From assembly GCA_965221695.1 (NCBI GenBank), contig OZ244905.1:2701384-2765383 (forward strand): DNA of 64,000 bases, read 5' to 3'. The stretch comes from Gammaproteobacteria bacterium. GTDB taxonomy: Bacteria; Pseudomonadota; Gammaproteobacteria; Eutrophobiales; Eutrophobiaceae. A program made the position numbers and the translations under genes. The notes below the pieces were generated by a model. The model saw only the letters and a program-made list of their open reading frames with translations, was not told where the DNA came from and ran no database searches. Positions 14,146 to 60,917 of this stretch are shown one piece after another. Every line of letters starts with the position of its first letter. Within the stretch, counting starts at the first letter, position 1.

Positions 14146-14189
14146 GACTATGACATAAGATTCGAGGAACAACCGTTTCAATCAAGAAA

Positions 14190-14330
14190 ATGTCCTCTAA
14201 AGGCCAGATTGTCATCCCTGAGCAAATACGCACGCAAATAGACCTAGAAGCGGGTTTCCAGTTACAGTACGTAGCCTCACCAATGCGCGTTTGCGGGAGA
14301 TTCTATTACAATCACAGTATCAAAGGTTAA
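14190..14330 (+). CDS. Short AbrB/MazE/SpoVT-like antitoxin ORF, probably truncated (46 codons)
   Basis: My own translation is MSSKGQIVIPEQIRTQIDLEAGFQL..., which matches the swapped-hairpin KGQ(I/V)xIPxxIR motif. It is too short for a full domain and has no adjacent toxin. It is absent from the track because it is under 60 aa. Confidence 0.35.
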   Translation: MSSKGQIVIPEQIRTQIDLEAGFQLQYVASPMRVCGRFYYNHSIKG

Positions 14331-15723: not shown

Positions 15724-15963
15724 ATGTCTTATCATGAACGAATTACGGTGGAACCAGGCAAACGGGGAGGCAAACCCTGTATTCGAAGGTTGCGAATTAC
15801 TGTCAATGACGTACTGGAATATCTTGCTTCCGGAATGACAGAGCAAGAAATCCTAGCTGATTTTCCTGATTTAGAACCAGAAGATATCAAAGCATGTTTG
15901 GCATTTGCTGCCGAGCGAAAACGGAAATTCGTATTGGCGCAAAAAAGTGAAACTGCTTGTTGA
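15724..15963 (+). CDS. DUF433-family antitoxin-like protein
   Basis: ITVEPGKRGGKPCIRRLRITVNDVLEYLASGMTEQEILADFPDLEPEDIKACL is the classic DUF433 pattern. Confidence 0.75.
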   Translation: MSYHERITVEPGKRGGKPCIRRLRITVNDVLEYLASGMTEQEILADFPDLEPEDIKACLAFAAERKRKFVLAQKSETAC

Positions 15964-17781: not shown

Positions 17782-17828
17782 GATTTTGCTGATATATGCT
17801 GTGTAAATTTTACTAACTGTCCTGCACC

Positions 17829-17980
17829 CCGAACATTCCGGTACGTACAGGAATTCAGTGAAACAAAGGGTCGCCCTCCGGGCGACACAGAATTTGACTG
17901 GACTCCCGCTTTCGCGGGAGTGGTACGGGGGAATACCTTGTTCTGTGCCAACAGTTACATGTAATCGGGGTGTGCAGAGA
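17829..17980 (+). repeat. REP-A copy plus shared extension
   Basis: ...cagtgaaacaaagggtcgccctccgggcgacacagaatttgactggactcccgctttcgcgggagtggtacggggg, followed by gaataccttg..caacagttacatgtaatcgggg. Confidence 0.85.
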
Positions 17981-18124
17981 GCTGATCATAAGGGTTTAGA
18001 GTTTGCAAACAACGTCTCGGATGAGATGACGTAATCAGGTCATGCCTGCTGGCGGTTTCTCCACATAACCGGCAGGGTTGCGACGGCGGGCCAGTAGTTT
18101 GTCAATTTCCCAGCGGGCGGCTGG

Positions 18125-21100
18125 TTAGACATCGGTGAGGCAGGTAGTCACTCCATTCAATTGTTTTGCGACCGGCAAGCCGTTTTTGAACAATATCCTG
18201 TTGGTATGCAAGGCCGGGATGCGGTCGCCGGGCAATATCACGCCTACCAGGTTCAGCGGATCGGTGGCGGAGATGACGACTGGAGGCAGCTCCTGCGTGG
18301 CGTTTTTCTGTTTCCTCAACAAGGCAATCGCCTCCGGTCGGGCAAATTGTTCGCCGGAGCAGCCTTCGACAAAATAACCGCCACGGATCTCGCCTCGCGC
18401 CTCCATGCGCCGGCACATATACAGCAGCTCTCTCCACGGCGGTAAGTCGGGTTCGCGTTCCAGTACCTTGCGGAACAGCACACCATAACGCTTCAGCAGG
18501 GTATCGACAACCGCGCTCAGCGTGTTTTCGTCCGTGCCCGGCCAGGCGCGCTGTTCCGGGGTTTCGGGGTCTTCCGTTGAACTGACAATGGCCGACCAGC
18601 GCCCTGCGGCATCGACGCTGTTCATGCTCGACGCTCGCCGGCGTCGCCTCCCATGGCCGTAGCCGGGGCGCTTGCTCTCCGGTGTGATCAGTGCCCGGAG
18701 CCCTGCGTAGCTGTCTGAGGTGACGGCGCCGCCAGCGGCCAGTTCAGCCAGCGCCGTTTCCACCTGGGTGCGCAGTAAACCGGTCTGTTGCGCCAGGTCC
18801 ATGAAAAATGATGCGCCCTGGCGCCGCAGGGTGTCCAGGGTTTTTGCTGCTGCGGACGATAACTTCCTGCCCTGGATCGCATCCGGCAGCAGAAGTTTCT
18901 GCCACAGGTCAAGGCGTTCACGGTCCAGCAGGGTGATGGGCGTGTTCCTCAGCAATACCGCTTTGCCCGCAGACATTTCATCCGCTGCAGCCCTGTGCCT
19001 GGCAGAACGCAGGCGCGACCAGACGATGCGGCCACTACTGCACAAGCGGTCCAGGGCCGCGCTGGAGTAGTCGTTCAGGCGGGCAGGCAGGATATCCTTT
19101 TCCCACGCAGCCGCGGCAATGGCGTAACCCTCCAGTTTTTCCAGCGCCGCCAGCAGCGCGGCGTCACCCTCGGGTCGTATTTCACCCATACCGTGCCACG
19201 CAAACAGGAAACGCATATAGCCGGCGGCTGTTACCGGTTTGATTTCCTGCCGTAACGATTGAATGGTATAGCGGTGCATCCTGGCGAGCAGGCCGCGCTC
19301 GCACCACTCTGTCTCCACGGCGTCAGGGCTGTACCGGCCCTGCATCGCATAGCCCTCGTTCTGCAATGCCAGCAGGGACGCGTTAACCTCGGTGGCGCTT
19401 GCGTCAAACAGTTCAGCCAACTCGGCTTCGGTCACGGGTCCGCAGCATTCGAGCCGGGCGCGCACAAGTTCGATCAGCGCGGACTCTCTGGCAGGTCTTC
19501 CTGTACCAAGGGCTGCCTCTGGCGGCATCTCGGATAACTGGATTTTTGCTTCCGCCGTGATGGCGGCAGAGGAGCGCCGGGATGGTGGGGAGGCAGCAGT
19601 ATCGATAGAAGAAGCAGGCGCTGGGGGCAAGCCGGCAGCCGCAGTGGTTGGCCCGCCGGCATATACTGCCTGAGCCTGGGGAAGCCGTTCGGCGCAAACC
19701 CATAGGGTCTGTTTGCCGGCGCGCAGCACGGTTGCGCGTTTCTCCTCCATAAGCCGAGGCAACCAGGGGCGACCGTCTGCCAGCGCCGGGTTATCGCCGC
19801 TGCCTTCGCGTGCACTCATCACGCCGGTAAGCATCAGCGCATCATGCAGTTCATCTGCGTCACGGAATGCCGGCCAGGCTTCACTGCGTACCTGGGCGAT
19901 GGCTTCCGGACTCAAGCGGGCAAGGTTTGCGGCGTCGGCCGGGTCCAGGAAGCGCCTGGCAATGACCGCGTTGGTGCGGCGTTCTTCCGCCGGCGCATCA
20001 TCCAGGAATGCATACGGCCGGGCGTTCAGGATTTCCTGTGCCAGCGGAGAGGGCCCGCCCAGGTCGCGGCAATGGAAGCGGATCCGGCCGTTCTCGTATG
20101 CCCGAAGAATTTCTTCCAGTCCGGCAATGTCCATCAGGTCGTTCAGGCAGTCGTTGACGGTCTGTTCTACCAGCGGATGCCGTGGTATTTCCCTTTCTCC
20201 GATGAGATTGTCCTGGCAGGCCAGTTGGTCGGGGAAGACCACCGCCATCAGGTCCTCGGCATCGCTGCGCTGGAACTGTGCGGGCACTTTCTGCCCGCCG
20301 CTGTTGCGCCTGACGGCCAGGGCCGTGGTGGCATTCCAGCGCCAGTGTGTGGGGAACATCGGCGTCGCCAGCAGCGCCTGGGTGACCGCGTCCCTGACGC
20401 TCGCGGAATTAAGGTAGCGGGTCACATCCTCCAGGGGAAAGCTGTGGATCGCGCCCAGGGATATGACAATGCTGTCGTCCAGGGCTGCGGCCTGCAACTC
20501 AAAATTGAACTGCCGGCAGAAGCGCTTGCGCAGGCCCAGGCCCCAGGCGCGGTTGATGCGGGAGCCGTAAGGGCTGTGCAGCACCAGGTGCTGGTCTCCT
20601 GCCTCGTCAAAAAAGCGCTCGAACACGACATCCTGCCGGGTCGGGACGCGTCCCAGGGCGGCGCGCGCGCCGGCCAGGTGATCGGTCAACTGGCGTGCAG
20701 CCGCCTCGTTCAGATTTAATTCGCCAACCAGCCAGTGATATGCGGTATCCCCGCCCTGCGCCAGTTTTTCATCCATGACGCTGCGCAGGCGTGAGACCGC
20801 ACGACTCAGTTCATCGGACCGGCCCGGCGCCTCGCCGAACCAGAACGGAATGTTCGGAGGCTGGCCTTGTGCGTCCGCAACCCGCACTTTGCTCTGTTCG
20901 ACCTTGAGGATGCGATACGAGGTATTGCCCAGTTGGAAGATGTCGCCAGGCAGGCTCTCGAATGCAAAATCTTCGTTCAATGTCCCGATAAAATGGCCCT
21001 CCGGTTCCAACACCACATCGTAATCGAACTGGTCCGGTATCACCCCGCCGTTGGTAACGGCAGTCAGCCTCGCGCTCTTCCTGGGCCGGATGCGCTTGTT

Positions 21101-22516: not shown

Positions 22517-22538
22517 AAGAGAACAGTTTATCCGAAAC

Positions 22539-22698
22539 TTAAGGAACCTCTGATTAAGTCAGAGGTTCCTACGATACAAGGATGTATCGTCAATATCAAT
22601 GACTGTAAGGCATTGATATTGTGAGGAAAACAAAAATCGCATTTTTGTTTTCCGTACTCTGACAAGTCCTGGATGGACTTGTTCAGAGTTTTCTTAAG
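22539..22698 (-). repeat. MITE-B element, full copy, inverted orientation
   Basis: Reverse complement of the 60745-60900 copy with few differences. Confidence 0.9.
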
Positions 22699-36166: not shown

Positions 36167-36260
36167 TTCCGCAGCTTTGCCAACCGTTCTATGCGGTTGC
36201 CCTGCGCAGCGATGCAGGGATAATGTGCTGTACCGCATAATCAGCTACAATAACCAGCCC

Positions 36261-36347
36261 GGAGAGGTGCCAGAGTGGTTGAATGGGGCAGACTCGAAAT
36301 CTGTTGTACGCGTCAGCGTACCGTGGGTTCGAATCCCACCCTCTCCG
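36261..36347 (+). tRNA. tRNA-Ser (anticodon CGA)
   Basis: ggagaggtgccagagtggttgaatggg...gactCGAaatc..., a long variable arm (gtacgcgtcagcgtac), T arm gtgggttcgaatcccac, and an acceptor pairing GGAGAGG/CCTCTCC with discriminator G. No CCA is encoded. Confidence 0.9.
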
Positions 36348-36701
36348 TAACATTCATGCCACAGGCGCATCTGGCGCCTGTGGCATGAATGTTGATGCAA
36401 TGGGGTTCGAACCCACGGTAATTAAATACGGGTTCGACAAATTCGCTGGGAGCGAATTTGAACAGCGTAGCTGGCCCCGGAGGGGCAAACTACATGGATG
36501 TAGTTTGTAATCCCACCCTCTCCGTAACATTCATGGCACAGGCGCTTCTGTCGCCTGTGCCATGAATGTTGATGCAATGGGGTTCGAACCCACGGTAATT
36601 AAATACGGGTTCGACAAATTCGCTGGGAGCGAATTTGAACAGCGTAGCTGGCCCCGGAGGGGCAAACTACATGGATGTAGTTTGTAATCCCACCCTCTCC
36701 G
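36332..36701 (+). repeat. Two tandem 177-bp units, each bounded by the 16-nt tRNA-Ser 3' end (three copies: 36332, 36509, 36686)
   Basis: aatcccaccctctccg occurs three times with an exact 177-bp period. Each unit starts with a 20-bp-stem hairpin (36349-36393; 36526-36570). Confidence 0.9.
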
Positions 36702-36705
36702 CCAT

Positions 36706-37896
36706 CTAATAGTCCGGTAAAGTCCGGAGTCTTCCAAGCGCTTCAATGAAATGTGCTAGTGACAGGATGGTTGTGTCCTGGCTGCCGGGGAATGTATCTT
36801 CGCCAGTGTAAACAACAAATTTCTGTTTTACCTTTAAGTCTTCACAGGCCATGTGAAAGCCTTTTTTCAAGGTTGGAGTTCGGCTTGCTTTGATCTCAAC
36901 GGCCCAGTATTCATCAAGACCAAACTCAATTACCAAATCAATTTCTGCCCCAGCAGATGTGCGATAGAAAAACGGATGAGCGCTTGAAGGTAAGGCGTTA
37001 ATAATGGTCTCAATGACAAACCCCTCCCAGCTTTTTCCGAATATAGGATGCCCCAACAAAGCTTCATAATTCGGAATTTGCAGCAAGGCATGCACAAGAC
37101 CGCTATCGCGTACATAGGTACGTGGTGATTTCACCAGCCGTTTTTTGACGTTCCCATGCCAAGGCTCTAGCCTGCGAACCAATAACAAATCAACCATGAG
37201 GTCCAGATATCGACTAACGGTGACACTCTCTACGCCAAGAGAGCTTGCGAGTTTTGACGCGTTCAGTAGTTCACCTTGTGTATGGGCAAGCATGGTCCAA
37301 AAGCGCATCAAGGTCGTTGCTGGAATTCTTGGTCCTAGCTGAGGGATGTCTCGTTCCAGATAGGTGCGAATAAAATTCTGCCGCCACTGGTGACTGGCCG
37401 CATCATCTTCAGCGGCATAGCTGTCGGGAAACCCACCACGTATCCAGAGCTTTTGTAAGGGCTCTCCGGATGTTTCTTCAATTTCAAAAAGGTTTAAGCC
37501 AGTCAGTTCAGAGTAATGAATGCGGCCAGCAAGGCTCTCAGAGCTTTGTTTTAGCAACTCATTGGTTGCCGATCCTAAAACAAGAAAGCGTCCGTTTCCG
37601 CGCCCCTCACGACGTCTGGCATCAATGATTCCGCGCAGTGACATAAACAAATCAGGGTAGCGTTGGACCTCATCGAGAATGACCAGCTTATCTGCATGTA
37701 GTTCTAGATAGTGGGCAGGGTCTTTGAGCTTTTGGAAATCCTCTGGGTTCTCGAGATCCAAATAAACAGATGGTTGCCCTTTGGCGATCTCATGGGCAAG
37801 CGTTGTCTTGCCAATCTGGCGCGGGCCAAGAATGGCAACAGCCGGATTTTGACTGAGACTTTTGATGATTTTCTGTGTAAGCTCTCTTTCATACAT
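36706..37896 (-). CDS. AAA-family ATPase with C-terminal DUF4143-type domain
   Basis: MYERELTQKI...VAILGPRQIGKTTLAHEIA (Walker A), VILDEVQ (Walker B), about 396 aa. The track ORF extends to 37971. Confidence 0.75.
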   Translation of the reverse strand: MYERELTQKIIKSLSQNPAVAILGPRQIGKTTLAHEIAKGQPSVYLDLENPEDFQKLKDPAHYLELHADKLVILDEVQRYPDLFMSLRGIIDARRREGRGNGRFLVLGSATNELLKQSSESLAGRIHYSELTGLNLFEIEETSGEPLQKLWIRGGFPDSYAAEDDAASHQWRQNFIRTYLERDIPQLGPRIPATTLMRFWTMLAHTQGELLNASKLASSLGVESVTVSRYLDLMVDLLLVRRLEPWHGNVKKRLVKSPRTYVRDSGLVHALLQIPNYEALLGHPIFGKSWEGFVIETIINALPSSAHPFFYRTSAGAEIDLVIEFGLDEYWAVEIKASRTPTLKKGFHMACEDLKVKQKFVVYTGEDTFPGSQDTTILSLAHFIEALGRLRTLPDY

Positions 37897-38276
37897 GCTA
37901 GCAATACTAACACAAAATATTAAATATGCAAGGTAAATGTTTTTGTGGTGATCTGTTTCCAATGAAGGCAAAGCGGGATTAGAACCCGCGATACGGTACC
38001 GTGTTCACAACAAAAACCGGCGCTTGGCGAGGAAGGTGTACAGGCGGGTGGTGAACAAGTCGCCGGTACGGCGAACTTTGCGAGGCACAAACCTCTTATC
38101 ACCCAATGTAATTCGGTTTGTATAGTCCGCAACATCCGTAATTGGTTTTGAAAATCCTGTGTCTATGGACAACCCCCCCATACTTGATTAGCATAAGTCA
38201 TAAGGAGGACCTATCGTGAACGTTGATTTCGTGACAAAGCGCCAGTCTGACAATCTCATGCAAATGCCGACCATCC

Positions 38277-38684
38277 ATGTCCAGGATTCGTTGTTATAGT
38301 ATCGGTCGAGACCCCTCCGCATCCATCGTACTGCGTCATGAGACGGTGTCGCGCAGGCATGCAGAGTTGATTCCCGTATCCGGCGGGCAGGTATACGTCA
38401 CGGATTGCGCCAGCGCCTGCGGGACTTTCATCGATAAGGGCAGGCGCTGGGAGAGGCTTACCCAGGATTTCGTCGGCGCAGGCGGCAGGGTGCGTTTCGG
38501 CGAGGTTGAGGTCAGCGTGCAGAGTCTGCTGGCGGACATTGCCCGCTTGCCTGCCGGCGGTGGAACGGGTCCCGGCGGTTCGGCGGAGCCCGGCGGTACC
38601 CCAGGCGCCGATAAGAAGAAACATGTGGATGCCGGCCGCGGGGTCATGCGCGACCCGGAAACGGGCGAGCCGATTCCCATGTAA
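38277..38684 (+). CDS. Small FHA-domain protein with Gly/Pro-rich tail (operon gene 1)
   Basis: YSIGRDPSASIVLRHETVSRRHAEL...VTDCASACGTFI carries the FHA G-R...S-R-x-H...GT pattern. Confidence 0.75.
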   Translation: MSRIRCYSIGRDPSASIVLRHETVSRRHAELIPVSGGQVYVTDCASACGTFIDKGRRWERLTQDFVGAGGRVRFGEVEVSVQSLLADIARLPAGGGTGPGGSAEPGGTPGADKKKHVDAGRGVMRDPETGEPIPM

Positions 38685-38699
38685 TCGGACAGACAGACC

Positions 38700-39473
38700 A
38701 TGAACCAGAGAATGAGGATATTCATAGGGGCGCTGGGCGCGGGCGTGATCTTCATCGGCCTGCTCAGCCTGTTTTTCTCCGAAGGTTTCTTCGCCGACTT
38801 CCTGCTGGACCGGAATTCGAAGTTCATGCCCTACCCGGTCACGATACAGAATATCATGTGGCTGGTGTTCTTCATCGGGGCGGGAGAATTGCTGTCGCGC
38901 TACCTGCAGACGGACCGGGAAATCAGCCAGATCCGCCTGGGACTGTTGCCGGAGGACAGCACAACCCTATTGCGCAAGCAAGATCTGGGCGGCGTGTACC
39001 AGCGCGTCAAGGAAACCATGCACCCGGCGCCGGGCGCTGCGGAGGATTCCTATTTCCTGCAACGCCTGCTGTCCCGTTGTATCCTGCAGTTCCAGGTCAG
39101 CGGCGCCATTGATAAGGCAAACAACATGTTCAACTCCAGCCTGGAGTTGTTCCAGCACGAGGTCGAGCTGAGGTACAATGCCATTCGCTATATCGTCTGG
39201 CTGATCCCGACCCTGGGGTTCATCGGCACCGTGGTCGGCATCGCGCTGGCGCTCAGCAACGCCGGCAGCGTCGACAACTTCCAGGACCCCACCTTGCTGA
39301 AACAGCTTACCCAGAGTCTCGGCGTAGCGTTCTTTACCACCTTGCTGGCCTTGCTGCAATCCGCGGCGCTGATGTTCGCGCTGCATGTCGTACAAGGACA
39401 GGAGGAAGCGTCGCTGAACCGGATAGGGCAGTATTGCCTGGATAACCTGATTAACCGGTTGTACGAGACTTGA
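38700..39473 (+). CDS. MotA/TolQ/ExbB-family proton-channel-like membrane protein (operon gene 2)
   Basis: Predicted TM helices are present. The C-terminal block IPTLGFIGTVVGIALAL...LGVAFFTTLLALLQSAALMF matches the MotA_ExbB signature PxLGxxGTVxG...AxxTTxxGL. Confidence 0.7.
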   Translation: MNQRMRIFIGALGAGVIFIGLLSLFFSEGFFADFLLDRNSKFMPYPVTIQNIMWLVFFIGAGELLSRYLQTDREISQIRLGLLPEDSTTLLRKQDLGGVYQRVKETMHPAPGAAEDSYFLQRLLSRCILQFQVSGAIDKANNMFNSSLELFQHEVELRYNAIRYIVWLIPTLGFIGTVVGIALALSNAGSVDNFQDPTLLKQLTQSLGVAFFTTLLALLQSAALMFALHVVQGQEEASLNRIGQYCLDNLINRLYET

Positions 39474-39715
39474 TGGGGGTCGCCTGCGCGAGACAAATCG
39501 GCAGGACAGCCGATTTGCGCAGCGACTGCTGCCCGCAGGGTTGTATCCAGGGAAGGATGCAATGAGTGACGGAAGGAGAGAGGAATGACGGGTGGGTTCA
39601 AGAATGACGGTTAAGGGGCGAAGGGAGGTGTCGGCAAGTGGGTGTCGGCAAGTTGAACGCAGGGTGGTTTTCTGTTAAATTTTCATCAACCGCAACACCA
39701 GAAGGGGAGGACATC

Positions 39716-40375
39716 ATGCCGGTAAAACGCGATGCGGACGGGAACATCATAAAGGAACAGACAAGAACTACCGGAGTGGGTGATCCGGTGTTGCCGACCT
39801 TGGGGCGCTCCACTGTCGGCGCCACGGTCGGCCCCGGCAGGTCTCCCGAGACCAACCCCGGCCAGTCATCGGGTTATGAGGCCCAGACGGTGCTGGCAGG
39901 TTCGCCCCGTGTCGCGGAAGGGGAAGCCAGGACCCGGATCTACCGGCCCGGCAGGACGGGGCGGCAACAGCCGGAGACACCGGCTCCAGGTACGGGCGCT
40001 GAGGACGCGACGTCCTCTGCCATGGACGACCCGCCCGTAGGCTGGCTGGTCGTCGTCAGTGGGCCGGGACAGGGGAACTACATGGCCGTCGGCAACGGTT
40101 CGAATTCAGTCGGACGCGATGAGCGCGAGCGAGTGCGCGTGGATTTCGGTGACGAGTTGATCTCCCGCAGCGACCATTCAACGATCACCTACGATCCCAG
40201 GGGTAAGAAGTTTTACCTGCAGCACGGCGCCGGAAAAAACCTCACTTACCTGGAAGGCAAACCTGTCCTGGCGCCGACCGAACTGCCCGGGTTTTCCCGG
40301 ATCACGATTGGGAACACCGAATTGCTGTTCATCCCGCTCTGTTGCGATCAGTTTGACTGGGACGACTACACGTAA
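39716..40375 (+). CDS. FHA-domain protein with Thr/Pro/Gly-rich disordered N-terminus (operon gene 3)
   Basis: The ATG at 39716 is preceded by gaaggggagga. The C-terminus reads GWLVVVSGPGQGNYMAVGNGSNSVGRD...ISRSDHSTITYD...NLTYLEGKPV...ITIGNTELLF. Confidence 0.8.
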   Translation: MPVKRDADGNIIKEQTRTTGVGDPVLPTLGRSTVGATVGPGRSPETNPGQSSGYEAQTVLAGSPRVAEGEARTRIYRPGRTGRQQPETPAPGTGAEDATSSAMDDPPVGWLVVVSGPGQGNYMAVGNGSNSVGRDERERVRVDFGDELISRSDHSTITYDPRGKKFYLQHGAGKNLTYLEGKPVLAPTELPGFSRITIGNTELLFIPLCCDQFDWDDYT

Positions 40376-40384
40376 CAGGTCGTT

Positions 40385-41368
40385 ATGAATGCCCTCAAGC
40401 AGTGGGTGTCGGGAGAGCAGATCCAGGGAGACCGAAATTACCAGGAAGACTATTTCTCGCTCAGCCTGCTTTCCCAGGGCCGGGAACCTCCGGATGAAGA
40501 CTGCCTGCTGCTCGTGCTGGCCGACGGCATGGGCGGACATGCCGGCGGCGCCGTTGCCAGCGAGACGGTAGTCAAGGCATTCCAGGAGGGCTTCAACCGC
40601 GATGCAACCGGGATCGCAGAGCGTTTCAGCGCCGGCATCGACACCGCCAACAACGCCGTCAGGGAAAAACAACAGGCCGATCCGGAACTGTCCGAGATGG
40701 GTTGCACCCTGGTGGCCGCGCTGGTGGTCGGGTCGACCCTTTACTGGACCAGCGTCGGCGATTCCATACTGTGGCTGTGCCGGCAGGGACATTTGCAGAG
40801 ATTGAATGCGGACCATTCCATGAAACCGCTGTTGCTGGACCTGGTCGAATTGGGCAGGATGACCGAAGAAGAGGCGCTGAGCGATTACCGGATCAACCAG
40901 CTACGCTCGGCCATTTTCGGCGAGGAGGTTCAGCTGATTGACATGAACGCGGACGGTTTCCAACTGGAGAGTGGTGATCTCGTTTTACTGGCCAGCGACG
41001 GCCTGGAAACCCTGTCCGGGCAAAGCATGACAGATGTCATCGAGGCCCGCGCGGACGATGCCGATGAGATAGTGAACGCCCTGCTTGACGCAGTTGCCAT
41101 GGCGGGGGTGCGCGGGCAGGACAATACTACGGCGCTGGCGTACCGGGTCGGCCAGGGGCATGATTCACTGCACGGCGTACTGGCGGGCATCAGCACAGAT
41201 GACAAGGATGCCGTATTCGAGCAGCAAGTGAAACCCTCCCGAACCTGCGAGTTGCGCCCGGCACAGGAACAGGAAGCGCCGGCAAAGCGGCCCGGCATCT
41301 TCGCCCGAGCCATACATGCCTTCTCCGGTAGACCGGCGCGTCAAGACACTCGTGACGGGAAGCAATGA
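40385..41368 (+). CDS. PP2C-family Ser/Thr protein phosphatase (operon gene 4)
   Basis: RNYQEDY, LADGMGGHAGG, LASDGL and GQDNTTA motifs. Confidence 0.85.
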   Translation: MNALKQWVSGEQIQGDRNYQEDYFSLSLLSQGREPPDEDCLLLVLADGMGGHAGGAVASETVVKAFQEGFNRDATGIAERFSAGIDTANNAVREKQQADPELSEMGCTLVAALVVGSTLYWTSVGDSILWLCRQGHLQRLNADHSMKPLLLDLVELGRMTEEEALSDYRINQLRSAIFGEEVQLIDMNADGFQLESGDLVLLASDGLETLSGQSMTDVIEARADDADEIVNALLDAVAMAGVRGQDNTTALAYRVGQGHDSLHGVLAGISTDDKDAVFEQQVKPSRTCELRPAQEQEAPAKRPGIFARAIHAFSGRPARQDTRDGKQ

Positions 41369-43104
41369 CAGCAATACGAGCATTGATGTTGTGTGCGCTT
41401 CTGGTGTACCTGCCGGCAGGCAACAGCCAGACGACCGGTGATGACGCAGAAGCGCCGGCTGTTTCCTCTGCCACTGCACCCGCTGTGCCTGCTGATACGC
41501 CCGTGACAACGGAGGACCCAGCGCAAATAGCCGCCCCCTCAGCGGATACAGCCACGGCGATTGCCGCGGTTGTGCAGGTTCCCGAACCCGTAGATTTCAG
41601 TGCGGTGCGGCCCCACCTGGTGGTCATAAGAGAAGGGATGGACGCCGCCGCACGTCGCACGCCGGGATTCAGCATCAGCGACCAGGGCCATATCCTGACT
41701 TATTCCGGAGAATTACGCGCCCGGGAGTACTACCTTGTCTCGGTTGCAGGCGGTCAGGTCTTTACTGCTGCGCTGCTTGATGAAGATGAAGACACCGGCC
41801 TCATGCTACTGAGGATCGCAGGAGAAGGGCACGGCCTCACCGCCCTGAAGTTTGCCAGAACGACGCTGGAAGCCGCGGTGCCGCTCTATGCAGTACGGTT
41901 CGACCCGGTGCGGGCGGAGCCGTTCGTGCCCGTTCCCGGCACGGTCACGCGGTTGCCTGCAACGGATGAGGAGACACCGGCAATCGTGCATAATGCCCTG
42001 TTCAATACGGCGGCCGCCGGGACGCCCTTGTTCAACCGTTGTTACCAGGCGGTCGGTGTCAGCGTGCTGCAAAGGAAGGGCTTCCCGCCGAGAACTCTCG
42101 ATCCCCAACAACAGGGTAGCGCCATCTCCCTGGCGGCCTACTCGTTGAGCGTGATCCTGGCGTCGGCCAACCTGACCCTGCCCATCGCTGAGGCGGAGTG
42201 CCAGAGTGCGGAGGAGGAGGCGCGACTGCGGCTGGAACAACTTCAGCAGGAAAAAGAGGCGGAGCGGGCAAATGCCGAAGCCCTGGCCCTTGCCGCCGCG
42301 GAGGAAGCGCTGCGCAGGGAGGCGGTAATGAACCTGGAGCGGGAAGCAGCGCAACAGCAGCTTGAACAGGCGCGCCAAGAGAAAGAAGCGGCCCTGCAGG
42401 CGGAGCGGGCAAGTGCCGAAGCCGATAAGCGCCGTTTGGAAGAAGAAGCGCAGCAACAACTTGAACAGGCGCAGCAGGAGAAGGAACAGGCCCTGCAGGC
42501 ACAACAGCAGGAGAATGAACAGGCTCTGCAGGTGGAGCGGCAGGAGACCGAACAGGCCCGGCGGGAAGCCCGGCAGGCGACGCATACGGGGAAACAGATC
42601 CTGCTGTTATCGCTAGCGGTCGTCTTCGTCCTGGCGCTGGTCTTCTTCCTGGTCCTGCGCGCCAGGCGTAAACACCTGCAACGCGTGGAACAGGAAAAAC
42701 AGCAGTTCGCCCAGGACCTGGACAGGGCAGAGGCAGACCTGTCAGACGCCTCCGAGAGGGAGCAGCTACGCGCCGGCGCCCCCGACGTGTTTATCGAGGG
42801 TGTCACGCCGCAGAACGAGCGCATCGCCCTGAAAATACCCGGCGCCTCACTGGTCAAACCCTCAGGTGTCACGGTAGGCAGGAGTCCCTCCGAATCCGAG
42901 TTCGTCATCAATCACGAACAGGTCTCCCGCCGCCATTTCCGCCTCATGCTGGTGTCTGGGCAGGTGATGATCGAAGATATGGGCTCGACCAATGGGACCG
43001 TCGTGAACGGCGTGCCCCTCAGTCCCGGCGCCCGGCAGACGCTGGGCGACGGCAGCCGCATGCAGGTCGGGCGCGTGACGATGACGGTGCGGATAGGTCT
43101 CTGA
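41365..43104 (+). CDS. Bitopic membrane protein: signal peptide, trypsin-like (apparently inactive) periplasmic domain, repetitive coiled coil, TM helix, cytoplasmic FHA domain (operon gene 5)
   Basis: Signal MTAIRALMLCALLVYLPAGNSQ. The HtrA-like layout (GFSISDQGHILTY...DTGLMLLRI...AAAGTPLF) lacks an obvious His or Ser. QQLEQAxQEKExALQA repeats follow, then TM ILLLSLAVVFVLALVFFLVL. The FHA region reads VTVGRSPSESEFVINHEQVSRRHFRL...STNGTVVNG. Confidence 0.65.
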   Translation: MTAIRALMLCALLVYLPAGNSQTTGDDAEAPAVSSATAPAVPADTPVTTEDPAQIAAPSADTATAIAAVVQVPEPVDFSAVRPHLVVIREGMDAAARRTPGFSISDQGHILTYSGELRAREYYLVSVAGGQVFTAALLDEDEDTGLMLLRIAGEGHGLTALKFARTTLEAAVPLYAVRFDPVRAEPFVPVPGTVTRLPATDEETPAIVHNALFNTAAAGTPLFNRCYQAVGVSVLQRKGFPPRTLDPQQQGSAISLAAYSLSVILASANLTLPIAEAECQSAEEEARLRLEQLQQEKEAERANAEALALAAAEEALRREAVMNLEREAAQQQLEQARQEKEAALQAERASAEADKRRLEEEAQQQLEQAQQEKEQALQAQQQENEQALQVERQETEQARREARQATHTGKQILLLSLAVVFVLALVFFLVLRARRKHLQRVEQEKQQFAQDLDRAEADLSDASEREQLRAGAPDVFIEGVTPQNERIALKIPGASLVKPSGVTVGRSPSESEFVINHEQVSRRHFRLMLVSGQVMIEDMGSTNGTVVNGVPLSPGARQTLGDGSRMQVGRVTMTVRIGL

Positions 43105-43818
43105 ATGAACCGTTCATTGTGGTGCGGTTTGATATTTCTCAGCCTCTGGGGTCTGAGTTACCAGGGTGGCGCGGATATTGATGACCAGGAAGAACATTTC
43201 AGGGAGGAGCAGGGGGCGCAACAGGATCAGGAAGCCGCGCGACGGGAACGCAAGCGTGCCCGACAGGCAGAACAGGAGGCGCTCCGGCAACAGGAAGCGG
43301 CGCGCCAGCGCGTGGTTCAGCAAAATCTGTTCGTAACCTTGCTGGCTCTGTTGACCCTGCTGGCCTTGATACTGGCCTTGAGAAAACCCCGGCAGGCCAT
43401 TGTTTGGGCCGCCGGCCACGCAATCGAACCACTCAGTCGGCGCTTCAAACCGGCAGGGCGCTTGCCCGCGCCGGGCGCAGCCCGCGCCGGGACGGCAAAC
43501 GTCGTACTTACGGGCTTTGACAGCCGGGGCAAACCGGTGAATATCCCGTTGCCGGAGGAGGAACTGGATCGGAAACGGGGCGGTTTCACCCTGGGGCGCC
43601 ATCACCTGCTGGTCGATACGGCGCTGGACGATGACCGGATATCGAAGCGCCATGCCCGGTTCACCCGCAACGGTCACGGCTATTTTATCGAAGACCTCAA
43701 TTCGAGAAACGGCACTGTGATCAACGGTGAGCAACCCTGCGCGCCGTTCAAACCCATGCGAATCAGGCCCGGCGACACGGTGCGGCTAGGCGGCATGGAG
43801 TTGCTCGTATCGGCCTGA
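43105..43818 (+). CDS. Membrane-anchored FHA-domain protein (operon gene 6)
   Basis: N-terminal hydrophobic segment, a charged E/Q/R-rich stretch, TM LFVTLLALLTLLALILAL, and a C-terminal FHA (FTLGRHHLLVDTALDDDRISKRHARF...SRNGTVING). The ATG abuts the gene 5 stop. Confidence 0.75.
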   Translation: MNRSLWCGLIFLSLWGLSYQGGADIDDQEEHFREEQGAQQDQEAARRERKRARQAEQEALRQQEAARQRVVQQNLFVTLLALLTLLALILALRKPRQAIVWAAGHAIEPLSRRFKPAGRLPAPGAARAGTANVVLTGFDSRGKPVNIPLPEEELDRKRGGFTLGRHHLLVDTALDDDRISKRHARFTRNGHGYFIEDLNSRNGTVINGEQPCAPFKPMRIRPGDTVRLGGMELLVSA

Positions 43819-43831
43819 TTCGGAAGCGCCC

Positions 43832-44635
43832 GTGAGGCTACGCAGCAAGGAGATCAATGTCTTCAACATGTCCGCGCTGGACCTGTTCGCCTCCGCGCTG
43901 GGTGCGTTTATCCTTATTTCCGTGGTCTTGTTTCCCTATTTTCCCAACACCGGCGATTCCCAGGAACGGGTGGACGAGGTCAAGGCGCAACTGGCTGAGG
44001 CCAATGCGCGATTGGAGGAAACCAGCGCCGAACTGGAGCAGGTCCGCGCCCGGTTGAACCCCGCCCTGGAACAAGAACTGCAGGTCGCACGAGAACAACT
44101 CGGCGCGTGCCAGGCCCGACTCCGGGAGGCAGAGGCCGCGCTAAACGCCTGCCAGGTTGAACAGCGAGAAGTTGCATCATTGGATTCCGCGCTGGGCGCC
44201 TGCGAGAACCGCAACCGGCAGATGCAACAGGAACTGCAATCCTGCGAGAATGAATTGCGCAAGAAATTCGTGCTGGTCGTGATCAGCTGGGGCACGCCGG
44301 ACGATATCGACCTGCACGTGATCGATCCGCAAGGCCGGGAGTTCTTCTACGGGCGCAAACACATCCCCGGTTCCCTGGCAAAACTGGAAGAGGACAACAC
44401 CAGAGGTCCCGGCAATGAGATCTGGCTGCACCCGGCCGCGGAGCCGGGCGCCTACGAGGTTTACTACAAATATTACGATGGATCAACCGGCAACGTGCAG
44501 GTGCGCGGCGCGGCGCTGACGCCCCGCGGCAGGACGGAGTTGCCGGACATCACTCTGCGGTACGTGGGTGAGAAGCCCCTGGTGGCAACCATTTTCGTCA
44601 ATGAGGATGGCAACGCTGAGGTGAGGGCATGGTAA
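43832..44635 (+). CDS. Bitopic protein with MotB/ExbD/TolR-like Asp-containing TM helix, Cys-bearing coiled coil and C-terminal DUF2135 (YfaP)-like domain (operon gene 7)
   Basis: N-terminus MRLRSKEINVFNMSALDLFASALGAFILISVVLF (compare TolR SEINIVPLLDVLLVLLLIF and MotB ADFMTAMMAFFLV). The coiled coil has four xAC(Q/E)/SCE motifs. The C-terminus reads VISWGTPDDIDLHVIDPQGREFFYG...EEDNTRGPGNEIW...PGAYEVYYKYY. Confidence 0.6.
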   Translation: MRLRSKEINVFNMSALDLFASALGAFILISVVLFPYFPNTGDSQERVDEVKAQLAEANARLEETSAELEQVRARLNPALEQELQVAREQLGACQARLREAEAALNACQVEQREVASLDSALGACENRNRQMQQELQSCENELRKKFVLVVISWGTPDDIDLHVIDPQGREFFYGRKHIPGSLAKLEEDNTRGPGNEIWLHPAAEPGAYEVYYKYYDGSTGNVQVRGAALTPRGRTELPDITLRYVGEKPLVATIFVNEDGNAEVRAW

Positions 44636-44660
44636 CGCGGCGGGAGGGGAATTTTCCGCA

Positions 44661-44690
44661 TTGACACGATTTCCCAGGCCCCCTTAGAAT
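44661..44690 (+). promoter_or_regulatory. Sigma-70-like promoter candidate upstream of the kinase gene
   Basis: TTGACA (44661-44666), an 18-nt spacer, then TAGAAT (44685-44690). A perfect 9-bp inverted repeat, ccggtgaca-N11-tgtcaccgg, follows at 44700-44728. Confidence 0.4.
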
Positions 44691-44766
44691 ACGGTTTAAC
44701 CGGTGACACAATTTAATTCTGTCACCGGATTTACGGGGCAAACATAACAAACAAAGACGGCCTTCC

Positions 44767-47373
44767 ATGAACTCCGACCACCTGCATGCCCTACCGCCCG
44801 GCACGCGCCTTGAAGAATTTCGGCTGGAGGCGCAGGTGGGCGCCGGCGGGTTCAGCATCACCTATCGGGCCTATGACGAATTACTGGACAAGGTGGTGGC
44901 CGTCAAGGAATACCTGCCGCGGGATTTCGCCACCCGCACCGCCGGCAATACAGTGGCGCCCATATCCGATGCGGACGCCCGGGATTACCAGTGGGGCCTG
45001 ACCCGGTTCCTGGACGAGGCCCGCACGCTGGCCAGGTTCGACCATCCGCATCTCAACAAGGTGCGTCGTTTCTTCGAGGCCAACGGCACGGCCTACATGG
45101 CGCTGGAGCATATCCATGGCGAGACCCTGGCTACCCGGTTAAGCCGCGAGCGGCGCTTGCCGGAAACGGACCTGCTGCGCCTGCTGGAGGAAGTGTTATC
45201 GGGACTTGCTGTGATTCACGAGGCTGGCTACGTGCACCGGGACATCAAACCGGGCAACCTGATGCTGCGCGAGGAAGACGACAGCATAGTGCTGCTGGAC
45301 TTCGGCGCCGCGCGCCAGGCAGTGGGCCAGAGTTCCAAGTCAATCACCAGCATCCTGACACCGGGCTATGCCCCGATAGAGCAGTACGAAAGCAAAGCGG
45401 ACGCCGTCGGACCGTGGAGTGATATCTATGCATTGGGGATGGTGGCGTACAAGTGCATCAGCGGCGCGGGTGACGGGGAGTTGCCCGATGCCGTGACCCG
45501 GGCCCGCTCCCAACGCAAAGGGGGTAAGGACCTGGCGATGGCGGCGGAGGTGGGCCAGAGCAGGTACAGTGCGAAGCTGCTGGCGGCGATAGACTGGGCC
45601 ATCGAGGTGGATGAGGAGTCCCGGCCGCAGGGGGTGGGTGAGTGGAGTGAGGCGCTGGTGGGGAGCGGGAGCAAGCAACGAGCCGCCAAACCGGCGCCTA
45701 ATACAACGGCACGGTCTGCAAAGGCTCCGGCCACCGAGCGCCAGGGTATGAATTGGTACAGCATGGCCCTGACCGCGGTGATAGTGGTGTTACTGGGAGC
45801 GAGCGCCTGGCAGGGCTGGCGGCTGTATCAGGGGATGCCCGGGCTTGGCGTAGACGGCGCCGCCACGGCAGTTGAGTCGCAGGCAAACGCACAGGGCAAA
45901 GCAGAGTTAGCAGCAGAACCCTATGCACAAACACCAACGGTAACGCCAGAACAAGGCTCCGGGCCTGACGCGCCCACACTGGCCGCGCCGGTTGAGGAAG
46001 ACGAAGTCGCCCGGCTGCTGGCTGCAGCCGAAGCCGACTTGGAGGCAAGACGCCTGACCAGTCCGCAGGGGAACAACGCCTGGGAGAAGTACCGGCGGGT
46101 ATTGGGTTTATCCTCCGCGCACCCCGAGGCCATAGCGGGGATGGAGCGGGTGATCGGGAGTTACATGGACCTGTTCGGCGCTGTTCTGGAGCAGGAGGAT
46201 TTTGACCAGGCGGAGGGGTATCTCTCACGCATCCGCGACCTGCACCCGGATTCGCCACTCTTGTTGACGGGGAAAGAACGTTTGGAACAAGCCCGGCAGG
46301 CTCATGTCGAGCGGTTGGCGGAAGAAGAGCGCCTGCGCCAGGCCGAGGAAGCGGCGCGCCAGGCGGAACAGGAGCGCCAGCGAATAGCACAGGAAATCGA
46401 GAGACACTGGCAGTCCTTTGAGACGGCAATGCAGCAAGACAAATTGGACCGGGCGGAAGACAGTCTCAACCTCGTGCGGGAGTTGGACTCGGACGCGCCG
46501 GGGTTAGCGGATGCGGAACGACGCCTGTCACAGGCGCGGGAAGCATCCCGGCAGAAGGCGCTGCAGTATGCCGGTGAGATGGTCTCCATCCCTGCCGGCA
46601 GTTTCCGCATGGGGGACCTGACAGGCGCTGACGCTGAGAAACCGGTCCACAGTGTGCGAGTCGCGGCCTTCAGCATGGGCAAGTATGAGGTAACGGTGGG
46701 CCAGTTCCAGCGGTTTGTGGAGGCGACGGGGTACCTCACGGATGCGGAGCGTTATACGGACGGCAAAGCAGGTTGTTCTGTCTATACAACAAAAAGATGG
46801 AAGTACACCGAGGGCAAGAGTTGGCGCAATCCGGGGTTTTCAGTCGGAGACAAGCACCCGGTGGTGTGCGTGAACTGGAATGATGTGCAGGCGTTCGTGA
46901 AGTGGCTGAACGGCAATACCGATGGGGATTTCCGCTTGCCGACCGAGGCGGAGTGGGAGTATGCGGTGCGCGCCGGGAGCAGTACGAAGTATCATTTCGG
47001 CAATGATGAGTCACAACTGTGCCGGTTTGCCAGCCATGCGGACAGCGGGACGGATATTGATTGGAAAAACAAGTCCTGCTCGGACGGTGTGGGCGAACGC
47101 ACCGCCGAAGTGGGCCGTTACCAGCCGAACAGTTTCGGGCTGTATGACATGCACGGCAATGTCTGGGAGTGGGTGACAGATTGCTGGAATGAGAGTTATG
47201 TGGGCGCCCCGACAGACGGTAGCGCCTGGACGAATGGGGACTGCAGCCGGCGCGTCATTCGGGGCGGGGCCTGGGACAGCTCACCGTGGAACCTGCGTTC
47301 CGCGCACCGTTACGGGAGCTCCCGTTCGAATCACAGCTCTTATCTGGGCTTTCGCTTGGCCCGGGACAACTGA
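44767..47373 (+). CDS. Transmembrane Ser/Thr protein kinase fused to a C-terminal FGE-sulfatase (SUMF1/formylglycine-generating enzyme family) domain (operon gene 8)
   Basis: Kinase motifs GAGGFSITY, VAVKEY, HRDIKPGNLML, DFGAAR and TPGYAPIEQY. TM WYSMALTAVIVVLLGASAW. A helical/coiled periplasmic linker follows. The FGE domain reads MVSIPAGSFRMGD...FRLPTEAEWEYAVRAG...GLYDMHGNVWEWV...RVIRGGAWDS...LRSAHR. Confidence 0.85.
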   Translation: MNSDHLHALPPGTRLEEFRLEAQVGAGGFSITYRAYDELLDKVVAVKEYLPRDFATRTAGNTVAPISDADARDYQWGLTRFLDEARTLARFDHPHLNKVRRFFEANGTAYMALEHIHGETLATRLSRERRLPETDLLRLLEEVLSGLAVIHEAGYVHRDIKPGNLMLREEDDSIVLLDFGAARQAVGQSSKSITSILTPGYAPIEQYESKADAVGPWSDIYALGMVAYKCISGAGDGELPDAVTRARSQRKGGKDLAMAAEVGQSRYSAKLLAAIDWAIEVDEESRPQGVGEWSEALVGSGSKQRAAKPAPNTTARSAKAPATERQGMNWYSMALTAVIVVLLGASAWQGWRLYQGMPGLGVDGAATAVESQANAQGKAELAAEPYAQTPTVTPEQGSGPDAPTLAAPVEEDEVARLLAAAEADLEARRLTSPQGNNAWEKYRRVLGLSSAHPEAIAGMERVIGSYMDLFGAVLEQEDFDQAEGYLSRIRDLHPDSPLLLTGKERLEQARQAHVERLAEEERLRQAEEAARQAEQERQRIAQEIERHWQSFETAMQQDKLDRAEDSLNLVRELDSDAPGLADAERRLSQAREASRQKALQYAGEMVSIPAGSFRMGDLTGADAEKPVHSVRVAAFSMGKYEVTVGQFQRFVEATGYLTDAERYTDGKAGCSVYTTKRWKYTEGKSWRNPGFSVGDKHPVVCVNWNDVQAFVKWLNGNTDGDFRLPTEAEWEYAVRAGSSTKYHFGNDESQLCRFASHADSGTDIDWKNKSCSDGVGERTAEVGRYQPNSFGLYDMHGNVWEWVTDCWNESYVGAPTDGSAWTNGDCSRRVIRGGAWDSSPWNLRSAHRYGSSRSNHSSYLGFRLARDN

Positions 47374-59433: not shown

Positions 59434-60747
59434 GTGGCGTCAAGACAAGGCTCAGTCCGCAGTCCGGTGAATAGTCTGAATCCCTCCCTGCGGGAATACT
59501 GGCCCCGGCGTTACACGCTGACCGGCCTGGCGGTTATCGCGATGTTCATCTGCTACATGGACCGGGTGAACATTTCCATTGCCATCATACCGATGGCTGA
59601 CGACATGGGTTGGCAGCCGGAACAACAGGGCATGGTATTGTCGTCTTTTTTTCTCGGTTACCTGTTAACCCAGGTCCTCGGTGGCCGCCTGGCGGATCGC
59701 CATGGCGGCAAGCTTGTGCTGGGAGTTGCGGTACTGGTCTGGTCGTTGTTCACGTTTGTCACACCCGTAGCTGCAATGGCCGGTTTCGGCGCACTGCTCC
59801 TGGCGCGTATCGGTATGGGCGCAGGCGAAGGCGTGGCGTTGCCGGCCGTTTACAGTCTCTACGGTCGCTGGTTGCCGCGTCATGAGTTTTCCCGCGCCAT
59901 TGGCGCTACCTTTTCTGCGATGACCCTGGGGATTGTTTTCGGCATGGCAGCCACGCCCTGGATCATCGTCAATTTCGGTTGGCACTGGGCATTTTATTCA
60001 TTCGGTCTCGCCGGTTTTGCCTGGTTCATCTTCTGGCACAAAAGCGCTGCGTCGCATCCTGACCTGCATTCGGGTATCAGCGAGCAAGAGCGCGCGCTGA
60101 TACGCAGGGATGCGGCGCCGGTCACGGCAACACAGGCGCCGCCCTGGGGCCAGTTGTTAACCACACCGGCCGTCTGGGCTATCATCGTGGCCCATTTCTG
60201 TTCCAACTGGGGTGTGTACGTGCTGCTGGCGTGGATGCCCACCTATATCAACAAGGGGTTGCAGGTTGATTTCAATGCGGTGGGCTTGTATGCAATGATC
60301 CCCTACATCGCCGCCTTCCTGTTCTTTAACATAGCCGGCGCGCTCGCAGACAGACTGGCCATGCGTGGTTGGGAGACAATAAAAATCCGCAAGTTGATGC
60401 AAGTCATCGGTTTTGGCGGACCGGCGCTGATCCTGATGTTCGTCGGTAATGTCGATAATGCAGAAGCCGCGATTGCATTGATGACACTGGCCAATATTTT
60501 TATAGCCTTCAATGCGGGCGCTTTCATCGTCAACCACCTGGACATAGCCCCGAAATACGCCGGCGTTTTGATGGGCCTGTCGAACACGGCAGGCACAATA
60601 CCGGGTATCATAGGCGTTTATGTCAGCGGAATGATACTGGGGCTGACTGGTTCGTGGACGCTGGTGTTTCAGCTCGCAGCGCTGGTATACCTGCTGGGGC
60701 TGGTATTCTACCTGGCGTTCGCATCGGGCAAACGCCTGTTTGATTAG
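59434..60747 (+). CDS. MFS transporter (anion:cation symporter-like)
   Basis: About 12 predicted TM helices and GGRLADRHGGK (MFS loop 2-3 motif). The GTG start is uncertain. Confidence 0.8.
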   Translation: MASRQGSVRSPVNSLNPSLREYWPRRYTLTGLAVIAMFICYMDRVNISIAIIPMADDMGWQPEQQGMVLSSFFLGYLLTQVLGGRLADRHGGKLVLGVAVLVWSLFTFVTPVAAMAGFGALLLARIGMGAGEGVALPAVYSLYGRWLPRHEFSRAIGATFSAMTLGIVFGMAATPWIIVNFGWHWAFYSFGLAGFAWFIFWHKSAASHPDLHSGISEQERALIRRDAAPVTATQAPPWGQLLTTPAVWAIIVAHFCSNWGVYVLLAWMPTYINKGLQVDFNAVGLYAMIPYIAAFLFFNIAGALADRLAMRGWETIKIRKLMQVIGFGGPALILMFVGNVDNAEAAIALMTLANIFIAFNAGAFIVNHLDIAPKYAGVLMGLSNTAGTIPGIIGVYVSGMILGLTGSWTLVFQLAALVYLLGLVFYLAFASGKRLFD

Positions 60748-60900
60748 GGAAACTCTGAACAAGTCCATCCTGGACTTGTCAGAGTACGGAAAACAAAAAT
60801 GCGATTTTTGTTTTCCTCACAATATCAATGCCTTACAGACATTGATATTGACGATACATCCTTGTATCGTAGGAACCTCTGACTTAATCAGAGGTTCCTT
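60745..60900 (+). repeat. MITE-B element, full copy
   Basis: The copy starts at the MFS stop codon. All five hairpins are intact. Confidence 0.9.
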
Positions 60901-60917
60901 AGTTTTGGAGACAACTT

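Follow-up and report, generated by a model that had tools for sequence, protein, structure and literature searches.

Do two genes that stand 4.4 kb apart among genes for signalling proteins encode the two subunits of a single ion-driven motor? The question arises from a 64,000-nt stretch of DNA of a Gammaproteobacteria bacterium (contig OZ244905.1; hereafter the window), in which eight closely spaced genes, all on the plus strand, occupy positions 38277-47373. The original prediction concerned positions 38700-44635, where coordinates and gene content are as it described them. It proposed that a MotA/ExbB-like protein (gene 2) and a small membrane protein with an Asp in its membrane helix (gene 7) form a 5:2-type stator pair encoded by non-adjacent genes. 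The products of genes 2 and 7 are indeed probably the A and B subunits of one ion-driven motor, which would belong to the MotAB/ExbBD/TolQR class. The two genes share an operon in the window, and their separation is a lineage-specific arrangement of gene blocks, not a property of the system.

By sequence and predicted fold, gene 2 encodes a genuine A subunit of the MotA/ExbB/TolQ family. Its product matches the Pfam family MotA_ExbB (PF01618) at residues 132-238 with E=1.1e-10 and 41.7 bits; since this exceeds the curated Pfam threshold of 22.9 bits, the signal is beyond chance. The motifs on which the family assignment had been based, IPTLGFIGTVVGI and LGVAFFTTLLALL, are both present. Membrane helices were found at approximately residues 7-25, 163-185 and 208-230, and possibly at 50-68. 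The two C-terminal helices contain four residues, P170, T177, T213 and T214, that are invariant in an alignment of 63 sequences and correspond to the P...GT and TT motifs of PomA. When gene 2 is aligned to PomA by HMMER, T177 faces the Thr of GMIGTLVG, and T213/T214 face LLTTL. We take these Pro and Thr positions to be those that surround the B-subunit Asp in the solved 5:2 motors, and the conserved Thr residues are presumably equivalent to T145 and T178 of TolQ. The AlphaFold2 model of gene 2 (pLDDT 85, pTM 0.79) was compared with the PDB by Foldseek, and 49 of the 50 best matches were TolQ, ExbB, MotA or ZorA, with TM-scores of up to 0.61/0.70 for the TolQ of Acinetobacter. When the profile of the 63 sequences was searched against all PDB sequences, PomA and MotA alone were returned, at non-significant E-values of 0.6-1.4. 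The best match in PADLOC was ZorA2 (E=7.5e-6), and the weak ZorA matches span the channel core only.

The product of gene 7 begins with the sequence MRLRSKEINVFNMSALDLFASALGAFILISVV. According to its AlphaFold2 model, it has one membrane helix (residues 15-36), and the Asp that had been pointed out inside this helix is Asp17 (codon GAC, 43880-43882), which lies three to four residues from the helix start. The basic N-terminal flank and the acidic C-terminal flank of the helix predict a single-pass protein with its N-terminus in the cytoplasm. The GTG start codon of gene 7 is supported by the conservation of the encoded N-terminus across phyla. To what extent this N-terminal anchor is conserved can be judged from a scan of about 186,000 species representatives, one genome per species, which revealed relatives at 359 loci. 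From these, 79 loci were kept, and 77 of them are independent and were used for the context counts below. The 79 loci belong to Gamma- and Alphaproteobacteria, Binatia, Latescibacterota, Acidobacteriota, Campylobacterota and Planctomycetota.

The motif (E/D)(I/L)N(I/V)FS(M/I)SALDLFASA(L/M)GAF is almost invariant in homologues whose identity over the whole protein is 31-48%, and therefore the conservation of the anchor is beyond chance. The membrane helix is the best-conserved segment of gene 7, with a mean identity of 71% in the anchor columns versus 48% in the whole protein. Asp17 was found in all 59 aligned homologues and in every homologue with an intact N-terminus from the 79 loci, which represent about six phyla. 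An exhaustive search with the 45-residue anchor yielded 709 anchor-bearing clusters; the Asp is present in each of the 147 listed representatives, in nearly all of which the anchor is N-terminal. Conservation of the membrane-embedded Asp and family membership of gene 2 are two of the three points on which the original prediction could have failed, and both came out in its favour.

Less can be said for the claim that the anchor resembles both TolR/ExbD and MotB/PomB. What stands is a weak match to a model of the Zorya B subunit, while any similarity to ExbD, TolR or MotB falls short of statistical support. In PADLOC, 22 of 41 isolated anchor fragments matched the membrane-helix region of the MotB-like ZorB1 model, with E-values no better than 1.2e-3; these matches are not independent, because the fragments are near-identical. 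Full-length gene 7 matched the same region with E=3.8e-4, and ZorB1 was the sole library family matched by the anchor. The fragments matched no ExbD, MotB_plug, TolR or ZorB model in Pfam and NCBIfam at E-values of up to 10, and a 43-residue anchor profile searched against PDB sequences retrieved chance-level helices of insect Orco proteins (E ~0.07) and no stator B subunit. A homologue search with the 45-residue anchor alone returned nine short fragments only. Homology of gene 7 to known B subunits is unproven at the level of sequence, and the case for a B subunit rests on function-like features and on gene context.

The periplasmic part of gene 7 was correctly recognized as atypical. In the AlphaFold2 model the usual ExbD- or OmpA-like domain is replaced by a long helix followed by a beta-sandwich (residues 147-266, pLDDT ~90), and no OmpA or ExbD fold is among the listed structural matches. 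As modelled, this part is neither a peptidoglycan-binding OmpA domain nor an ExbD fold. The best structural matches of the head are TerD proteins; Foldseek returned weak beta-sandwich matches only. The proposed assignment of the head to DUF2135 did not hold, since no Pfam family at all matches residues 147-267 at E-values of up to 1, and DUF2135 is absent from the 25 best listed matches of five gene-7 homologues. The Pfam TerD model likewise gave no match to the head at E-values of up to 1, no vWA domain was detected in the head of the window gene 7, and searches of the PDB with gene 7 and its head, as single sequences and as profiles, gave coiled-coil noise or nothing. The head contains an invariant acidic motif, SW..DDxDLHVxDPxGxE ... 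LEEDNxxGPGNExWLHP, the acidic residues of which may form a TerD-like metal site, and the head may bind calcium.

The stalk differs in length among the homologues. In the window gene 7 it carries Cys residues at positions 93, 107, 124 and 138; an even number of stalk Cys residues was counted in 55 of the 59 homologues, with a spacing within the Cys pairs that is mostly a multiple of seven residues. We infer from this pattern a parallel dimeric coiled coil in the periplasm, an oxidising compartment, with Cys residues in core positions serving as interchain disulfides. A helical hairpin was also considered for the stalk and was dropped, because the symmetry of the Cys positions is a trivial outcome of two pairs that each have a spacing of 14 residues.

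The head type of gene 7 is found in only 25 of the 147 anchor-bearing representatives. Among 76 other full-length representatives, 56 contain vWA domains, in which a MIDAS-like D..S.S motif is conserved, and in these relatives the same anchor and coiled coil are joined to the vWA domain. Paralogues with vWA heads adjoin or substitute gene 7 in the same cassettes. Such head swapping on one anchor is what would be expected of a module for insertion into a motor. In some cassettes two anchor-bearing genes are in tandem (L008:10001-11739, L079:9020-10951 and L030:9884-15404), either as a TerD-type with a vWA-type gene or as two vWA-type genes, and the paralogues at L008 share an identical stretch of approximately 50 residues spanning the anchor. 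The tandem genes suggest that B subunits may be heterodimeric within one ring.

Gene context speaks strongly for the pairing of genes 2 and 7: at 61 of the 77 loci, a homologue of gene 2 is located within 10 kb of gene 7. The original prediction regarded the separation of the two genes as an atypical feature of the unit. In the window four genes do lie between them (FHA, PP2C and two membrane FHA genes), but this does not hold throughout the system: at 14 loci gene 2 is directly beside gene 7 on the same strand with a gap of 10-81 nt, among them several Pseudomonadales-like and Acidobacteriota genomes, and at 18 further loci the small FHA gene 1 alone separates them. In Ca. Spongiihabitans, gene 2 and gene 7 form a stand-alone pair with a gap of 13 nt beside housekeeping genes, and no kinase, FHA or PP2C genes were found within 10 kb. 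The cassette consists of two blocks, gene1-gene2-gene3 (FHA-gene2-FHA) and gene5-gene6-gene7 (two protease/FHA genes and gene 7). The first block is kept across rearranged cassettes, mostly with gene 1 directly upstream of gene 2. The block order of the window is also found in Gammaproteobacteria and Binatia, while the order in Latescibacterota is gene5-gene6-gene7-gene1-gene2-gene3. At least three strains in culture carry the cassette, namely Nitrincola alkalisediminis JCM 19317, Thiomicrospira microaerophila ASL8-2 and Hansschlegelia beijingensis DSM 25481.

No gene for ExbD, TolR or MotB was detected in the annotated cassette contexts, including three that were seeded from gene 2. In these three, a small vWA gene or a gene without Pfam assignment stands at the position of gene 7 in every case, a correspondence of position only. 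A tblastn search of the whole window with TolR, ExbD, MotB and TolQ of Escherichia coli returned nothing, at low sensitivity. Genes 5 and 6 were considered as B subunits and rejected, since their membrane helices contain no acidic residue.

Several observations weigh against a motor formed by genes 2 and 7. The Foldseek E-values of the gene 2 model are modest (~1e-3), albeit in a uniform hit list. In Pfam, NCBIfam and the PDB, the anchor of gene 7 matches none of ExbD, TolR and MotB significantly, and its ZorB match is weak (~1e-3). At six of the 77 loci no gene 2 is present despite at least 8 kb of flanking sequence on each side; at least three of these (L020, L022 and L023) are without the other cassette genes too, and one belongs to SAR86. 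Because such orphan loci exist, gene 7 may work where no gene 2 is linked to it, or may pair with a gene 2 from another part of the genome. The A5:B2 stoichiometry and the coupling to protons we infer by analogy only. Finally, the likeness of the vWA-headed relatives to the TPH-vWA proteins of PMC12204202, those of Idiomarina, is so far one of description.

The orphan loci and the lack of significant similarity to ExbD, TolR and MotB would also agree with another role of gene 7, namely that of a bitopic periplasmic sensor or adaptor of a kinase/FHA complex. Its Asp would then pack against the helices of genes 5, 6 or 8, and gene 2 would be an unrelated channel working alone or with a canonical ExbD or TolR encoded elsewhere. 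Indeed, in this type of cassette gene 7 is always beside the membrane FHA genes, as part of the gene5-gene6-gene7 block. We nevertheless consider such a role unlikely. In the 14 genomes with adjacent genes 2 and 7, genes 5 and 6 are displaced or absent, and the pair of Ca. Spongiihabitans has no kinase or FHA partner at all. Moreover, the membrane helices of genes 5, 6 and 8 in the window offer no conserved polar partner for the Asp, and in none of the annotated contexts is gene 2 accompanied by an ExbD or TolR gene.

Even less probable, in our opinion, is that gene 7 docks outside the gene 2 ring as a force transducer in the manner of TonB or TolA, the true pore subunit being missing or encoded elsewhere. 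The layout of gene 7 (membrane helix, long linker and globular head) would suit such a transducer, and PMC12204202 describes a separate class of vWA transducers, which attach to TolQR-like motors at their edge. However, according to that report, the edge-binding class is characterized by an SHLS/His motif and by accompanying tolR-like genes, whereas the helix of gene 7 lacks His and has the invariant Asp, and the annotated cassettes lack a tolR-like gene. That the anchor is an ordinary signal-anchor with a chance Asp, the gene order reflecting shared regulation only, is hardly credible: its profile did retrieve chance-level Orco helices ahead of any stator protein, none of which was returned, but signal-anchors are poorly conserved while this one is near-invariant across phyla, 709 clusters and two head types, and its linkage to gene 2 survives several independent rearrangements.

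A motor built from genes 2 and 7 could work as follows. Gene 2 would form a TolQ/ExbB-like ring, pentameric by analogy, and two copies of gene 7 would place their N-terminal helices in its pore, where Asp17 of each helix amid T177 and T213/T214 of gene 2 would constitute the proton-binding site. Proton flow via Asp17 would turn or pull the stalk and head against a target in the periplasm or outer membrane, the stalk being a disulfide-stapled dimer that carries a ligand- or metal-binding TerD-like head. The motor would be part of a circuit of reversible Thr phosphorylation, the state of which would be set by the receptor kinase encoded by gene 8, with its lectin-like periplasmic domain, and by the PP2C phosphatase encoded by gene 4. 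Four FHA proteins would read this state, two of them soluble and encoded on both sides of gene 2, and two of them membrane proteins (genes 5 and 6) that are encoded beside gene 7 and carry periplasmic protease-like domains. Through contacts between phosphothreonine and FHA domains that gate or read the motor, they could switch it on and off or pass its output onward.

One may go further and regard the cassette as a phosphorylation-gated envelope machine, in which the kinase controls the rotor or the rotor informs the kinase circuit. This idea is tentative and we would sooner doubt than adopt it. The lectin-like domain, which is diversified by a retroelement in some genomes, might recognise phages, competitors or host surfaces; the kinase, acting through motor-bound FHA adaptors, might then switch a proton-driven rotor of TolQ-like protein and gene 7, and the TerD-like or vWA head of the rotor might perform mechanical work in the periplasm. 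In the reverse direction, the rotor might signal envelope disturbance to the kinase circuit. In either direction, if true, no stator-type motor before this one would have been directly controlled by Ser/Thr phosphorylation.

The identification of this gene pair is important for several reasons. Stator-type motors such as MotAB, ExbBD, TolQR, GldLM and ZorAB are among the few machines that convert a proton gradient to mechanical work, and each new type of stator partner exposes a new use of them. The family is widespread, with 359 loci among approximately 186,000 species representatives and 709 anchor-bearing clusters, and its carriers are poorly studied free-living lineages from sea and soil. 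Here a long stalk with an interchangeable head, either TerD-like or vWA, takes the place of the usual anchoring domain. Further, the link to a eukaryote-like circuit of kinase, phosphatase and FHA proteins makes the switching of the motor directly testable. While TolQ partners with an Asp helix are a kind that was recently recognised, the TerD-like head and the kinase/PP2C/FHA setting appear to be undescribed.

The genes of the cassette and the parts of gene 7 are listed in Table 1.

Table 1. Features of the cassette in the window, with positions counted from the first nucleotide of the window.
Feature	Position	Strand	Description
Gene 1	38277..38684	+	Small cytoplasmic FHA-domain protein, 135 aa; Pfam FHA E=3.2e-13
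Gene 2	38700..39473	+	A subunit of the MotA/ExbB/TolQ family, 257 aa; PF01618 E=1.1e-10
Gene 3	39638..40375	+	FHA-domain protein; Pfam FHA E=4.4e-06, aa 157-225
Gene 4	40385..41368	+	PP2C-type Ser/Thr phosphatase; PP2C_2 E=2.7e-13, NCBIfam Stp1/IreP-type PP2C E=7e-41
Gene 5	41365..43104	+	Trypsin_2 E=3.1e-06, FHA E=2e-16, hydropathy
Gene 6	43105..43818	+	237 aa; FHA E=3.2e-17, hydropathy
Gene 7	43832..44635	+	GTG start, 267 aa; anchor, stalk and head
Gene 7, anchor	43832..43942	+	aa 1-37; basic N-terminus, then membrane helix with Asp17
Gene 7, stalk	43961..44260	+	aa 44-143; single helix of ~100 residues predicted by AlphaFold2
Gene 7, head	44270..44632	+	aa 147-267; TerD-like beta-sandwich
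Gene 8	44767..47373	+	Receptor Ser/Thr kinase; Pkinase E=1.7e-31, FGE-sulfatase E=1.1e-67

From gene 1 to gene 7 the intergenic distances range from a 4-nt overlap to 15 nt, and because of this tight spacing genes 1-7 fit one operon. The exception is a gap of approximately 160 nt ahead of the annotated start of gene 3; from the reading of the open reading frame, the real start may be the ATG at 39716. The N-terminal region of gene 3 is long, of low complexity and rich in Thr, Ser, Gly and Pro. Gene 5 encodes a signal peptide, a periplasmic trypsin-like domain, a coiled coil, a membrane helix (residues 412-430) and a cytoplasmic C-terminal FHA domain. The catalytic-Ser motif GxSGGP is missing in 41 of 50 gene-5 homologues, and the window gene 5 has AAAGTP at this place. 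The product of gene 6 is composed of a coiled coil, a membrane helix (residues 74-92) and a cytoplasmic FHA domain. In the window it has no periplasmic trypsin domain, while homologues of ~440-490 residues retain this domain with an intact GNSGGP; GxSGGP is retained in all 38 long gene-6 homologues. According to Pfam and hydropathy, gene 8 encodes an N-terminal kinase, a membrane helix (residues 330-348), a periplasmic helical region and an FGE-sulfatase (C-type-lectin-like) domain. The 131-nt gap between genes 7 and 8 contains a sigma-70-like promoter match at 44661-44690 (11 of 12 positions), and thus gene 8 may have a promoter of its own; such matches are no more numerous in the region than in shuffled sequence.

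Downstream of the gene-7 homologue, L007, L024, L034 and L063 have three or four tandem kinase/FGE-sulfatase paralogues, which points to an expanded receptor repertoire. A cassette with a vWA-type B subunit (L084:11639-20783) contains bAvd and reverse-transcriptase genes after both of its kinase/FGE-sulfatase genes. A 117-nt template repeat (15837-15953) is located just 3' of the reverse-transcriptase gene. The two kinase genes match it at their 3' ends (14131-14247 and 19429-19545) and differ from it almost only at template adenines. Because these adenine-specific differences sit in the 3' ends of the kinase genes, the element is, as judged from its sequence, a diversity-generating retroelement that varies the periplasmic lectin-like domain of the cassette kinases. 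Such an element was also looked for in the window and rejected, since no matching repeat was found there.

A locus of a Gammaproteobacteria metagenome-assembled genome (CBDCSC010000001.1, L005) has the same sequence as the window. Upstream of the cassette lies a tRNA-Ser(cga) gene (36260-36348), followed by a 177-nt tandem direct repeat with copies at 36323-36499 and 36500-36676 that are 95% identical and overlap the 3' end of the tRNA gene. An AAA-ATPase-like open reading frame on the minus strand is located between the tandem repeat and the cassette (region 36260-37971). By this layout, the cassette region looks like an island inserted at the tRNA-Ser gene. In L001, a Binatia-type genome, the same eight-gene cassette is located between a resolvase gene and a replicase-domain gene (945-1724 and 17428-18069), and at L086 the cassette adjoins transposase and group II intron reverse-transcriptase genes. 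The cassette may be mobile. Further, a dispersed repeat of ~160 nt is present in three copies in the window (2949-3117, 22535-22697 and 60738-60906), which are 93-96% identical and one of which is inverted; a related copy of ~77 nt is found at 3875-3951.

How does the gene 2-gene 7 pair compare with known systems? Closest to it are the membrane-tethered vWA proteins of PMC12204202 (Mol Biol Evol 2025), which, according to that report, tightly co-occur with tolQ homologues in the absence of tolR/exbD. The helix of the TPH-vWA proteins is described there as TolR-like and trans-pore with a conserved Asp, the proteins often form heterologous pairs, and AlphaFold3 5:2 models place the Asp residues within a Thr ring. 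The original prediction had arrived at this idea independently. The likeness comprises a TolQ/ExbB-family gene without a tolR/exbD partner, a tightly linked tethered protein whose helix has a conserved Asp and a proposed place in the pore of the pentamer, and same-anchor relatives of gene 7 that have vWA heads and occur as tandem pairs. In contrast, gene 7 ends in a TerD-like beta-sandwich and not in a vWA domain, and it is present in the window as a single copy, not as a heterologous pair; the searched text of the report mentions no kinase, PP2C, FHA protein or beta-sandwich head. In the literature on cassettes combining FHA, PP2C, MotA/ExbB, FGE-sulfatase and vWA proteins, we found no description beyond the TPH-vWA report. 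According to a 2025 survey of MotAB homologues, which leaves FHA proteins unmentioned, A genes typically adjoin their B genes, and MotA, ExbB and TolQ receive no mention in a 2020 survey of vWA conflict systems.

With TolQR and ExbBD, the pair shares the fold of gene 2, the best structural matches of which are TolQ and ExbB, and the predicted topology of gene 7, a single-pass protein with its N-terminus inside, the helix of which has its Asp close to the cytoplasm. It differs in that gene 7 lacks the periplasmic ExbD/TolR fold and its anchor is not detectably homologous by sequence, that a third component of the TonB or TolA type, with an SHLS motif, is missing here, and that four signalling genes separate genes 2 and 7 in the window. 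The Zorya unit ZorAB, an anti-phage 5:2 motor, is a precedent for a stator-type unit that serves signalling instead of motility, and it supplies the best PADLOC matches of both proteins (ZorA2 for gene 2 and the membrane-helix region of ZorB1 for the anchor of gene 7). However, gene 2 with its 257 residues lacks the long cytoplasmic tail of ZorA, no PADLOC match to ZorC or ZorD was obtained with the eight proteins, and the periplasmic domain of ZorB binds peptidoglycan, whereas gene 7 has a stalk and a TerD-like head.

The AglRQS-GltG/GltJ machinery of Myxococcus also combines a TolQR-type motor with membrane proteins bearing cytoplasmic FHA domains, and the FHA domains of the operon gave weak matches to the GltG model. 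vWA proteins are also reported as participants in the Agl/Glt machinery. In contrast to the cassette, the Agl motor has the canonical TolR-like AglQ/AglS; no Glt homologues are encoded in the window operon, and the membrane FHA proteins are reversed here, their N-terminus being in the periplasm and their FHA domain, at the C-terminus, in the cytoplasm. Finally, by motif reading, the head of gene 7 has an acidic pattern, DxDL ... (E/G)DNxxGxGxE, similar to that of TerD proteins. Unlike TerD proteins, which are soluble proteins of the cytoplasm, this head is predicted to sit in the periplasm on a membrane-bound stalk. Ter systems are said, in work by Anantharaman et al. from 2012, to be likewise associated with vWA, PP2C and kinase proteins.

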